64,000 nucleotides of DNA from the IMG/VR virus record IMGVR_UViG_3300045988_069050, positions 1 through 64,000 of that record; one strand, given 5' to 3'. The notes under the pieces were generated by a model. That model was not told the DNA's origin and searched no databases. It saw nothing but the letters and a program-made list of their open reading frames with translations. The translations under genes were made by a program, and so were the position numbers. The DNA is from a virus. Every line of letters starts with the position of its first letter. Within the stretch, counting starts at the first letter, position 1. This document shows positions 18,825-34,034 of the stretch, piece by piece.

Positions 18825-18906
18825 TCCGATTTAGCTCAGTATGGTAGAGCGCCCATACCAATAAAGCATTAGTGGGAGGTCAGAGGTTCAAATCCTTTAA
18901 TCGGAA
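18825..18906 (+). tRNA. atypical tRNA-like gene: normal acceptor, D and T arms but 15-nt anticodon loop (accaataaagcatta); identity unclear
   Basis: acceptor tccgatt/aatcgga, D-arm gctc..gagc, T-arm agagg ttcaaat ccttt; anticodon stem cccat/gtggg encloses 15 nt. Confidence 0.4.
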
Positions 18907-18992
18907 CGACGAAACAAGGCTCCACAGCAGTTACAAGTTGTAACTGGTCTTATCTCCGAATAACTAGTCTTACGGGGTGGAGAAGTAGTCAC

Positions 18993-20836: not shown

Positions 20837-20909
20837 GGGCCGTTAGCTCAAATGGCTAGAGCGCTGGTTTTGCACACCGGAAGATAGGGTTCGAGTCCCT
20901 GCGTGTCCA
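20837..20909 (+). tRNA. tRNA-Ala(TGC)-like with poorly paired acceptor stem (possible pseudogene)
   Basis: D-arm, anticodon stem ctggt/accgg loop tttgcac and T-arm are canonical; acceptor pairs only 4 of 7, including a G3:U70-like pair. Confidence 0.35.
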
Positions 20910-21988: not shown

Positions 21989-22220
21989 GGCCTCTGATAT
22001 AATCCAACTTAAAGACCTAAAGGATGGGGAATTTGCAGAAGTGATAGAATGGTTTGAGGATGGAACAGTATCTAACGGAGATATAATTCAAAGATGTGGA
22101 CTTGCACTATTTATATTAGGAAGTTGTTCTTACTATCCTGAGATATTTAGTAAGGGTGCTAGAGACTATACTAATACTAAGTTACGGACACTACCTGAGG
22201 GTACAACTATAATGTTATAA
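21969..22220 (+). CDS. hypothetical protein (83 aa)
   Basis: ORF. Confidence 0.45.
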   Translation: MAKVVNRASDIIQLKDLKDGEFAEVIEWFEDGTVSNGDIIQRCGLALFILGSCSYYPEIFSKGARDYTNTKLRTLPEGTTIML

Positions 22221-22260
22221 TTTCTTTTTCCAGTTTTCTAATTAAAGATAAACTGGGTAT

Positions 22261-22822
22261 GGGCCTACTTGGATTTGACAGGCGATTACAAATTATAAGG
22301 ACGTGTAGAGCGCAATCTCTTTAAACGAAGAAAAAACAATAAATGCTACTTATAGCGAAGTAAGAATGGCAGCCTAAGCTGCTGGCTTGTTGGTAGACAC
22401 TATTAACTAAGTCGGGTTACGGGAGAGACCTAGAAACAGAAGAGGTTGAGTATATTGATATAATGGAGAGCTAGGCTCTAATCCTAGTAATATGCTCTTA
22501 ATCAGAACACTCTAAGAGTTAGTAAGACTGAATCTCCTACGTCATAAAACAGATGGAAGATGTGTTCCGTGAGATGTGACGAATCTCTAAAGTATCATCC
22601 CGTTCTCCAACGTAAATGGAGTGGTGGAACGTTGACTTCGGTCAGCCCTATAGTTTGGTAGCTTGTAGATAAGCATCTAGAGAAATACTTAGTATGGACT
22701 CTTGTAAGACTTATAAAACTACCTAAATGCTAGAACTCCCTAGCTGATATAATAAAAATGAGACGCACGTTATCCTTGTAACGAGGGTTGTTTGGACACG
22801 GGTTCGACTCCCGTTAGGTCCA
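22261..22822 (+). ncRNA. ssrA: tmRNA (ssrA)-like RNA; tag reading frame 22345-22377 encodes ATYSEVRMAA
   Basis: 5' GGGCCTACTTGGATTTGACAGG matches tmRNA 5' consensus GGGGCUGAUUCUGGAUUCGACGGG. 3' GGACACGGGTTCGACTCCCGTTAGGTCCA matches E. coli ssrA 3' GGACGCGGGUUCAACUCCCGCCAGCUCCA. Acceptor 7 bp with G3:U70. A-rich run before resume codon GCT; stop TAA lies in loop of hairpin gcagc-ctaa-gctgc. No ORF of 60 aa or more in about 940 bp. Confidence 0.75.
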
Positions 22823-22828
22823 CATAAT

Positions 22829-22902
22829 AGGGCTATAGCTCAACTGGTTAGAGCACCACACTGATAATGTGGAGGTTATCAGTTCAAGTCTGATTAGCCC
22901 TA
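22829..22902 (+). tRNA. tRNA-Ile(GAT)
   Basis: acceptor agggcta/tagccct, anticodon stem ccaca/tgtgg loop ctgataa. Confidence 0.75.
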
Positions 22903-22979
22903 CAAAACCGCCAGCTCACGCGGTATATAAGAAAGGATTGCCGGACTCGCAGGTGTAACGAGATAAATACCTGCATTTT

Positions 22980-23052
22980 CGAGGCTGTGGTGTAATGGCT
23001 TGCATATCACACTGTCACTGTGAAGGTTGGGGTTCGAATCCCCCAGTCTCGG
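22980..23052 (+). tRNA. tRNA-Asp(GTC)
   Basis: anticodon stem tcaca/tgtga loop ctgtcac, T-loop ttcgaat; acceptor register cgaggct/agtctcg. Confidence 0.65.
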
Positions 23053-23059
23053 CATTTAT

Positions 23060-23132
23060 TCCCCTGTAGTTTAGTTGGTTAGAACACGTGATTTGTAATC
23101 TCGAGACCTCGGTTCGAATCCGAGTGGGGGAT
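23060..23132 (+). tRNA. tRNA-Thr(TGT)
   Basis: acceptor tcccctg/tggggga, anticodon loop tttgtaa, T-arm ctcgg ttcgaat ccgag. Confidence 0.6.
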
Positions 23133-23159
23133 CTTAACCATTAAATCAGATTAATTTTT

Positions 23160-23909: not shown

Positions 23910-23916
23910 CTATGTA

Positions 23917-23948
23917 CCCCAGCAGCGGAAGTTGTTGGGGTATTTTTT
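23917..23948 (+). terminator. rho-independent terminator (8-bp stem ccccagca/tgttgggg + TATTTTTT)
   Basis: Hairpin plus T-run directly after tRNA-Glu. Confidence 0.6.
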
Positions 23949-33017: not shown

Positions 33018-34034
33018 ATGAAGAAAATTTTTAGTATTATTTGTTTGTGTTTAATGTGCGTGTTTGCTAGCGCACAAGTTGTTGAAACTGGAAGTTTGAA
33101 AGATAACTGGTATGTTTCTGGTAATGTAGGTACCACAATTTGGGACAACTCAAGAAGTTGGGCTGAACCTCATGATGTATTAGTAAATATTGCGGTGGGT
33201 AAAGAAATTACTCCTATCTTCGGACTAGAGTTAGATATGATGGCAGGTATGAATCAAGGCAGTAAAACGTTCTTCGATTCCCATAACCTTACAGCTAATG
33301 TAACTACTAATCTAACTAATCTTATTTGTGGATACGAAGGCTCTAGACGTTTATTTGAGCCTGTATTACTGATAGGTGCTGGTTGGTATCATACTTATGG
33401 TGATGTTTATAATAATGTATCTGCAAGAGGTGCAATTAGATGCAACTTTAATATTACTGATAGTTGGGCACTAAATGTTACTCCAGAGTATATGCTACTT
33501 CCAAAGACTACTCCTCTAAATCATGAAGTAAATGTTTATATAGGAGCCACTTACCGGTTTAAGTCTAATAAAGGAAACTTTCCTATGATGAAACTATATA
33601 GTGACGCTGAAGTAGAAAGTCTTAATGCTGCTATTAACGAGTTGAGGGTTAAGAATAGCGAATTGGAATCTCGTAAACCAGTAGAAATAATTAAGACTGA
33701 TACTATAGTAGTTACTAAGGTAGAACTTCTTACACCTAAAATTCAGTTTTTACAGAACTCTTCTGAAATCTCTACAACTTCTAATGTTGCAGTATCGGAG
33801 TTAGCAGCTTATATTTCAAATAGTGGTAAGTCATATATGATTGAAGGATATGCTTCTGAAGAAGGTCCAGTAGATTTTAATGACAACTTAGCTGTAGCTA
33901 GAGCAGAATCTATGAAGAAGGCCCTTATCAGTTATGGCGCTCCAGAGGATAAGCTTATAGTTAAAGGCTGCGGAAGCACTACTGAGTTTGGAGATAGAGA
34001 ATTTAACAGAATCGTAATCGTAACAGAACAATGA
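33018..34034 (+). CDS. OmpA-family outer-membrane protein (signal peptide, beta-barrel-like N-domain, C-terminal OmpA peptidoglycan-binding domain)
   Basis: Signal MKKIFSIICLCLMCVFASAQ; C-terminal IEGYASEEGPVDFNDNLAVARAESMKKAL matches OmpA_C. Confidence 0.8.
   Translation: MKKIFSIICLCLMCVFASAQVVETGSLKDNWYVSGNVGTTIWDNSRSWAEPHDVLVNIAVGKEITPIFGLELDMMAGMNQGSKTFFDSHNLTANVTTNLTNLICGYEGSRRLFEPVLLIGAGWYHTYGDVYNNVSARGAIRCNFNITDSWALNVTPEYMLLPKTTPLNHEVNVYIGATYRFKSNKGNFPMMKLYSDAEVESLNAAINELRVKNSELESRKPVEIIKTDTIVVTKVELLTPKIQFLQNSSEISTTSNVAVSELAAYISNSGKSYMIEGYASEEGPVDFNDNLAVARAESMKKALISYGAPEDKLIVKGCGSTTEFGDREFNRIVIVTEQ

Follow-up and report, generated by a model that had tools for sequence, protein, structure and literature searches.

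A 562-nt one-piece tmRNA gene in the tRNA cluster of a human-gut phage

The first 64,000 nucleotides of the viral record IMGVR_UViG_3300045988_069050 (hereafter the window) contain a transfer-messenger RNA (tmRNA, ssrA) gene at positions 22261-22822 (+). Sequence and family comparisons support its assignment as a standard-order, one-piece tmRNA gene carried by a phage, and we consider it probable that the gene is functional and provides an ordinary trans-translation RNA to a tailed human-gut phage of about 190 kb. The predicted mature RNA measures 562 nt up to the discriminator A, with CCA not encoded, and its limits are taken from the match to the Rfam model RF00023 and from the ends of conservation in a family of relatives. 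A tmRNA-like locus free of open reading frames (ORFs) had been described at this place in an earlier reading made from the DNA letters alone (the sequence-only reading), and every statement which that reading made on the sequence itself holds on re-reading of positions 22100-23000.

In a search of the 64-kb window, RF00023 matched positions 22261-22825 at 63.1 bits (gathering score 47, E 2.9e-22) over the entire model (1-374 of 374), which bears out the tmRNA assignment proposed earlier. When the region 22200-22828 was scanned permissively with all 4227 Rfam families, the only other model to appear at E <= 1 was that of the permuted tmRNA, with two partial matches that reach 25-26 bits and so stay below its gathering score of 47, while the betaproteobacterial tmRNA model gave no match at E <= 1. 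A two-piece or permuted tmRNA (RF04321, RF01849, RF01850) was therefore ruled out, the domain order being standard and the permuted model below threshold. The 3' tRNA-like domain pattern and the 5' pattern occur once each in the window, with none expected from 100 shuffles. Over the six frames of 22221-22828, no stretch without a stop exceeds 44 codons; single stop-codon reassignments give at most 83 codons and leave at least nine stops in that frame, so that the alternative genetic code which the sequence-only reading had named as a possible refutation makes no gene of the region. The genes around the tmRNA tile normally on the + strand in code 11.

Relatives were collected with an exact scan for the 3' 29-mer, which yielded 27 IMG/VR viral contigs, and with a looser 5' pattern, which yielded 29 human-gut metagenome contigs. 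Altogether, these human-gut viral and metagenome contigs and the window hold 49 complete copies of 515-574 nt, 37 of them distinct. RF00023 scored 56.3-74.6 bits on the four structural types of relatives, all above the gathering score. Mean pairwise identity reaches 98% in the 5' tRNA-like/P2 part and 97% both in the 3' part and in tag codons 6-10 with the stop, in comparison to 59% in the pseudoknot domain. Such conserved ends and a conserved tag end around a variable pseudoknot domain fit a tmRNA. Similarity between genomes starts exactly at G1 and stops exactly at the discriminator A, with unrelated flanks outside these limits (at least five upstream and four downstream contexts), which provides independent evidence for the predicted mature ends.

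The ends of the RNA form the tRNA-Ala-like acceptor that the sequence-only reading had placed there. Its 5' strand GGGCCUA (22261-22267, +) pairs with UAGGUCC at 22815-22821, including the G3:U70 pair, and the seven pairs are invariant in the 37 distinct sequences; the 3' strand together with the discriminator A22822 (22815-22822, +) is followed by the trailer CAU, not CCA. The T arm ACGGG-UUCGACU-CCCGU (22798-22814, +; Rfam alignment) adjoins the 3' acceptor strand, has a GUUCGAnUC-type loop and five invariant pairs. The P2 helix, which links the tRNA-like domain to the remainder of the molecule, consists of a 5' strand at 22279-22306 (+; RNAalifold), divided into P2a (22279-22287), P2b (22293-22301) and P2c (22302-22306), and a 3' strand at 22765-22794 (+; RNAalifold and family pair count). 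All 23 pairs of P2 are 100% paired in the 37 sequences, with only two one-sided changes, from U:G to U:A, and no compensatory change. Across relatives, the 3' trailer reads CAU, CAC, GGA or CUA and never CCA. Likewise, none of 26 window tRNA genes (5247-29362, +) encodes CCA; in 25 of them the discriminator is followed by C, as in the tmRNA, and CAA is the commonest trailer. One of the tRNA genes, with anticodon CAU (14461-14535, +), has the acceptor GGACCUA/UAGGUCC, identical to that of the tmRNA except for A3 in place of G3, and shares the CAT trailer.

The tag reading frame GCT ACT TAT AGC GAA GTA AGA ATG GCA GCC TAA is directly preceded by the A-rich stretch AAAAAACAATAAAT, which ends in TAAAT. 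Placed in register by the Rfam alignment, the frame GCU...GCC UAA (22345-22377, +) encodes ATYSEVRMAA followed by a stop; it has no start codon, its resume codon GCU at 22345 is RNA position 85, and the tag ends in hydrophobic-Ala-Ala. The frame-setting sequence UAAAU (22340-22344, +) provides U at -5 and A at -4, and UAAAU, UAACU or UAAUU is found at this site in all tag alleles. In Escherichia coli, the counterpart is U85/A86, and the frame there is set by A86, located four nucleotides ahead of the resume codon (PMC2481249). The stop codon lies in the loop of hairpin H5, GCAGC-CUAA-GCUGC (22369-22382, +; arms 22369-22373/22378-22382), recovered by RNAalifold and by the family pair count. The sequence-only reading had noted the A-rich stretch, the tag position near 85 nt, the ATYSEVRMAA frame and the TAA in the gcagc/gctgc loop, and all of them are present as it described.

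In all 49 copies the tag keeps the same frame, ten codons, a GCN start and the ending ...VRMAA with the stop in the H5 loop. Three variants were counted, namely AEIAPVRMAA in 26 copies, ATYSEVRMAA in 21, of which six have UGA as the stop, and AAYSEVRMAA in two. In the 515-nt relatives the H5 loop reads GUGA, as GCC UAA was replaced by GCG UGA in one lineage, still giving alanine and a stop. Tag codons 1-5 are represented by two unrelated 15-nt cassettes, ATYSE and AEIAP, which have 3 of 15 bases identical between flanks of about 97% identity. Cassettes and middle blocks combine differently in different copies, for instance AEIAP with a middle of the window type in L277, so that the gene is a recombining mosaic. 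The earlier description of the tag as non-canonical was too strong, since tags ending in MAA occur in bacteria, including Akkermansia sp. ANYSEEEYAMAA and Lachnospiraceae ADYEAPVAMAA, and in many other tmRNAs of viral contigs. The Bacteroidales tags in our sample are GENNYALAA and GNTSYALAA, and the phage tag thus differs from that of its likely host.

For the remainder of the molecule, a fold model of 133 pairs was assembled from RNAalifold on 19 sequences and block-wise reading of relatives, and was counted on an alignment of the 37 distinct sequences. RNAalifold recovered the acceptor, the T arm, the three-part P2, a hairpin at the site of pseudoknot 1 (PK1), H5 and several middle helices. 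Standard pairs fill 95.2% of the cells of the model, in comparison to 36-47% after a shift of the 3' partners by 1-3 columns. Changes on both sides were seen in 14 pairs, and none of 500 shuffles matched the paired fraction or the covariation score. At least ten helices lie in the domain between H5 and the P2 3' strand; two H-type pseudoknots are among them, as well as a candidate long-range pseudoknot, and they do not correspond one by one to PK2-PK4. Of the folding features that the sequence-only reading had proposed to check, the terminal helices, the placement of the tag frame and a pseudoknot-rich domain are consistent, and at PK1 only a hairpin was found. The hairpin at the PK1 position, AGAG-CGCAAU-CUCU (22307-22320, +), was obtained from RNAalifold; for a second PK1 stem, the best partners of its loop form only 2-3 bp, and Rfam flags mismatches in the annotated PK1 stem.

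The best-supported variable helices are an 11-bp hairpin after H5, the closing stem of a pseudoknot module, and a long interrupted helix. The 11-bp hairpin (22384-22413, +) is 100% paired with two compensatory pairs, for example A:U in 23 and G:C in 14 sequences. It is followed by the hairpin GGGUU/GACCU (22414-22431, +), and UCUCC at 22533-22537 is complementary to the GGAGA of its loop (22422-22426). The five pairs are kept in the 37 sequences, and an extra A with a matching extra U occurs in five sequences of one lineage, representing a single event; we tentatively consider GGAGA/UCUCC a candidate long-range pseudoknot. The 20-nt stretch GACCUAGAAACAGAAGAGGU (22427-22446, +) is invariant in 37 of 37 sequences inside the variable domain. 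The module at 22448-22497 (+) has a 9-bp closing stem, GAGUAUAUU/AAUAUGCUC, with four compensatory pairs, around a small H-type pseudoknot (AGAG/CUCU, CUAGG/CCUAG) that was read directly. The long interrupted helix (22653-22728, +), GUUUGGUAG.UU...AUAAG / CUUAU..AACUACC.AAAU with a variable tip, has 16 pairs that are 97-99% paired and three compensatory pairs, one position showing U:A, C:G, A:U and G:U.

A second H-type pseudoknot, CGUCA/UGACG with GAGAU/AUCUC and an optional inner hairpin GGAA/UUCC, occupies 22540-22587 (+). In relatives its second stem reads GUGGU/ACCAC in one group and UCUAU/AUAGA, along with GCC/GGC, in the short forms, and L004 and L017 lack the inner hairpin; MAFFT misaligns these blocks, which were therefore compared by reading the sequences themselves. 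At 22605-22646 (+) lie two hairpins, CUCCA/UGGAG and GUUGAC-UUCG-GUCAGC, with the compensatory variants ACUUU/AAAGU, GACC/GGUC and GAGACC/GGUCCUC in relatives. Finally, the hairpin GCUAG-AACUCC-CUAGC (22729-22744, +; RNAalifold and family pair count) lies just 5' of the P2 3' strand. When all column pairs of the MAFFT alignment were searched by brute force for covariation, the outcome was mostly noise, and minimum-free-energy folds of the middle region made from single sequences disagreed from one relative to the next, which is the behaviour expected of a pseudoknotted RNA.

The length of the RNA exceeds that of typical one-piece tmRNAs, as stated in the sequence-only reading. In a sample of 109 bacterial one-piece tmRNAs, lengths ranged from 335 to 415 nt with a median of 353, and in 120 viral loci one-piece tmRNAs outside the present family reach at most 420 nt, the sample being biased by the T-arm pattern used for collection and by the limits of ARAGORN. 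The longest tmRNA in a comparative alignment of 2005 has 425 nt (PMC1168896). The Rfam alignment places an insertion of 213 nt in the 3' pseudoknot region, and the extra 150-200 nt are helices and pseudoknots added to the pseudoknot domain, where function constrains a tmRNA least. A group I intron, a mobile element or a second RNA gene was dropped as the source of the extra ~200 nt, because no other Rfam family appeared at E <= 1; the silence of these families, together with blocks that vary with compensatory pairing in the manner of a structural RNA, shows that the extra sequence is not a recognisable intron.

The check with ARAGORN that the sequence-only reading had proposed was negative, as no tmRNA was called at the locus, also with -ps. 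Among relatives, ARAGORN calls only the 515-nt versions, with the spurious tag VQQKDDRATVLNLKAKG at positions 185-241, taken from the variable region. It also misses six tmRNAs of normal size that Rfam detects in viral contigs, so the negative result reflects the tool and not the locus. With ARAGORN as the usual annotation route in phage pipelines, the gene goes unnoticed or is given a wrong tag, and surveys of phage tmRNAs may undercount.

The genome that holds the gene is that of a phage, and the locus belongs neither to a bacterial chromosome nor to the end of a prophage. The 27 IMG/VR contigs, of up to 192 kb, carry it internally, and carrier contigs are mostly 185-194 kb, which we take as the genome size. 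The GC content of the window is about 36%, its genes all lie on one strand and include 26-27 tRNA genes, and its PHROG matches include a helicase, an ATP-dependent ligase, NrdD and NAMPT. In GenBank, the nearest records are scaffolds from human faeces that are labelled 'Bacteriophage sp.' and carry no annotation. The host is probably Gram-negative and of the Bacteroidota type, because gene starts in the window lack Shine-Dalgarno motifs and because an OmpA plus outer-membrane beta-barrel ORF is present (33018-34034, +). The window further contains a 652-aa SPFH/Band-7 protein (10502-12460, +), and TAG is a rare stop (3 of 73). In tblastn, a conserved 671-aa phage protein matched phages of many unrelated hosts, which is uninformative on the host. 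A scan of bacterial genomes with the T-arm pattern found no donor or host, the best 5' similarity being a weak one to Paludibacteraceae/Bacteroidales UGGUUUUGACAGC.

The identity of the gene, its ends, fold, reading frame and family conservation are shown by the sequence comparisons, and the course of events proposed for its product is drawn by analogy with the E. coli tmRNA. The tmRNA would be transcribed together with the neighbouring tRNAs, processed by RNase P and 3' trimming to 22261-22822, and provided with CCA by the host CCA-adding enzyme. The host alanyl-tRNA synthetase (AlaRS) would charge it with alanine through G3:U70 and the discriminator A, and with host SmpB and EF-Tu it would enter ribosomes stalled on broken or stop-less mRNAs. 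Translation would then resume at GCU 22345, four nucleotides after the conserved A, the nascent chain would gain A-ATYSEVRMAA, and release would occur at UAA. A hydrophobic-Ala-Ala end is the usual protease determinant of SsrA tags (ClpXP-type), and the ...MAA end would most likely send the product to ClpXP-type proteolysis. The phage may in this way keep ribosomes recycling during infection, when damage to mRNA and tRNA is likely. Charging, SmpB use, tagging, proteolysis and the benefit to the phage are all deduced from this analogy, and the earlier suggestion that ribosome rescue and tagging are under phage control is likewise an inference.

Several observations weigh against this reading. 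The RF00023 score is modest, 63 bits in comparison to 77-170 for other viral-contig tmRNAs, owing to weak matches in the pseudoknots and to the insertion of 213 nt. Covariation lends no support to the tRNA-like domain, P2 and the PK1 hairpin, none of which varies within the family; for the tRNA-like domain and P2, the support is the Rfam score. For PK1, the most important pseudoknot for the function of the E. coli tmRNA, only a 4-bp hairpin was found here. The family is a tight clade in these sequences, and an nhmmer profile of it found no distant relatives in 120 viral loci and only the generic 3' end in 120 bacterial loci. No SmpB gene was found in the 64-kb window of the ~190-kb genome with the E. 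coli sequence as query, which in a positive control did find the SmpB adjoining the tmRNA of L069. The RNA would thus need the SmpB, AlaRS, EF-Tu and CCA-adding enzyme of the host, and is presumed to be compatible with host SmpB and AlaRS, the host itself being a prediction.

Part of these observations could also be read differently. The tmRNA might act at the ribosome to compete with or replace the host tmRNA, either by titrating SmpB or by adding a phage-specific tag with a different fate, a tag that is stable or read by another adaptor or protease, with the two cassettes reflecting specificity. The unrelated ATYSE and AEIAP cassettes within flanks of ~97% identity, both unlike the Bacteroidales tags GENNYALAA and GNTSYALAA, would fit such a role, and in E. 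coli the SspB adaptor binds the tag in its N-terminal part. The lack of a phage SmpB gene in the window also fits, as do the phage molecules with only a tRNA-like domain that are thought to titrate SmpB (DS6A, PMC4131195) and the 81-132-nt mini forms seen in viral contigs. However, the C-terminal VRMAA, with its hydrophobic-Ala-Ala protease determinant, is strictly kept, MAA tags occur in bacteria, and a pure decoy needs no conserved frame, stop codon or frame-setting motif. On balance we regard this explanation as unlikely. A somewhat smaller chance is given to a specialised modular tmRNA, in which the enlarged pseudoknot domain and the interchangeable ATYSE/AEIAP before a fixed VRMAA would be adaptations and not drift. 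If this were true, the RNA might, for example, resist a host defence that cleaves or depletes the host tmRNA and tRNAs, or route tagged proteins to a particular adaptor or protease, and the phosphodiesterase-domain gene and tRNA-Ala described below would belong to the same translation arms race.

A captured bacterial ssrA copy, carried along with the tRNA cluster as a decaying or neutral and non-functional passenger, would account for the degenerate PK1, the swollen and highly variable pseudoknot domain and the modest Rfam score. Against this, the 37 sequences show no variation in the frame-setting motif, the stop, tag codons 6-10 and almost every position of the tRNA-like domain and P2 while the flanks are replaced, compensatory changes maintain helices of the variable domain, and no close bacterial donor was found, which makes the passenger very improbable. 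The integration site of many temperate phages is ssrA, whose 3' end they carry, and 3' fragments of tmRNA are common in viral contigs, but both an attachment-site remnant and a coding region in an alternative genetic code are refuted here by the presence of the 5' half, tag and 3' half in standard order, by the lack of any frame open under a single reassignment and by neighbours that tile in code 11. An ordinary trans-translation RNA supplied by the phage is the best-supported reading, one that leaves the understanding of trans-translation unchanged. It lets a common human-gut phage lineage, present in dozens of independent gut metagenomes, join the phages with a ribosome-rescue RNA of their own, and the two tag cassettes offer a simple handle for testing the role of the variable half of the tmRNA tag.

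Directly downstream of the tmRNA lie genes for tRNA-Ile(GAU), tRNA-Asp and tRNA-Thr (22829-23133, +). The tRNA-Ile gene begins 6 nt past the tmRNA discriminator in the window and about 86 nt past the 3' end in other genomes. In the relatives L006, L009, L012 and L285, the first ~110 nt after the tmRNA contain the first 16-22 nt of tRNA-Ile fused to a different tRNA, which suggests recombination between tRNA genes of the array. A tentative sigma-70-like promoter match, CGGACA-17-TATAAT (22185-22213, +), is located 48 nt upstream of the gene; the promoter scan gave 25 matches in comparison to 22.3 expected in shuffles, and thus no enrichment in the region. The upstream motif CTATAATGYTATAAT is kept in most relatives, not all. 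After tRNA-Glu, a strong hairpin with a T run resembling an intrinsic terminator (23914-23943, +) may mark the end of the transcription unit.

Further RNA-related genes were noted in the tRNA array and elsewhere in the window. An ORF at 14686-15102 (+) within the array matches the tRNA ligase phosphodiesterase domain (PF08302, 31.1 bits, cut-off 23), which hints at RNA repair. A tRNA-Ala(UGC)-like gene at 20837-20909 (+) has G3:U70 and mismatched acceptor pairs 5-7; Rfam scores it at 39.5 bits, ARAGORN makes no call, and it is conserved in the relatives L001-L004. Speculatively, the two genes fit a phage that protects or repairs the translation apparatus during infection. The tRNA-Tyr(ATA) called by ARAGORN at 18825-18907 (+) has a 15-nt anticodon loop and may hold a small intervening sequence or be mis-assigned. 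A RAGATH-14 RNA (1514-1685, +; 182.9 bits, gathering score 149.1) lies in a stretch of about 1.9 kb in which no ORF reaches 80 aa. A ROOL RNA of 294 bits (L059, 4853-5307, -) adjoins a 417-nt tmRNA and about 20 tRNA genes in a viral contig of 117 kb that is unrelated to the present phage.

The sequence-only reading had pointed to a phage-borne tmRNA beside a large tRNA set, and the gene is indeed confirmed in a tRNA cluster, a kind of arrangement already known. Phage tmRNAs on record include those of Bxz1-like (cluster C) mycobacteriophages and Bacillus phage G, and that of DS6A, which has a tRNA-like domain only (tmRNA Website; PMC4131195; PMC12484599). They have also been reported in huge phages of more than 200 kb, often with SmpB (Al-Shayeb et al. 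2020, PMC7162821), and in gut-virome surveys that used ARAGORN-based pipelines (PMC12291355). Our literature search found no description of the present tmRNA family, which is not proof of absence.

The Bxz1-like phages and phage G likewise have a complete one-piece tmRNA with a tag frame, in large lytic-type phages with many tRNA genes, and its function was inferred there as well. In contrast, the present host group is in the human gut and probably belongs to Bacteroidota, the RNAs measure 515-574 nt in comparison to roughly 308 nt for that of phage G as reported, only a hairpin was found at PK1, the tag has two cassettes, and no sequence similarity exists beyond the generic tRNA-like domain. 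As in the huge phages, the tmRNA belongs to a set of phage translation genes with a large tRNA array; however, the present genome falls just short of 200 kb, its 64-kb window gave no SmpB, and the huge-phage survey relied on ARAGORN, which does not detect this family. DS6A also carries a tmRNA-type tRNA-like domain on a phage, whereas the present RNA has full mRNA-like and pseudoknot domains and so is not a bare SmpB decoy. Hits of 81-132 nt that join both ends of the tmRNA model and have only the tRNA-like domain, like DS6A, were observed in the other viral contigs L063 (5315-5398), L058 (7700-7780) and L052 (5115-5246).

With the bacterial tmRNAs of RF00023 (E. coli SsrA, Bacteroidales), the present RNA shares G3:U70, the T arm, P2, the U-A motif, an alanine resume codon, the stop in the H5 loop and a hydrophobic-Ala-Ala tag end. 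It differs from them in being 150-200 nt longer than any of the 109 sampled, in the extra helices of its pseudoknot domain and in PK1, for which no second stem longer than 2-3 bp was found, and its tag sequence is unrelated to those of Bacteroidales. A phage tmRNA as such is already known; what is unusual here is the length, the PK1 hairpin, the two tag cassettes and the failure of ARAGORN, and the known size range of one-piece tmRNAs is extended to about 515-574 nt.

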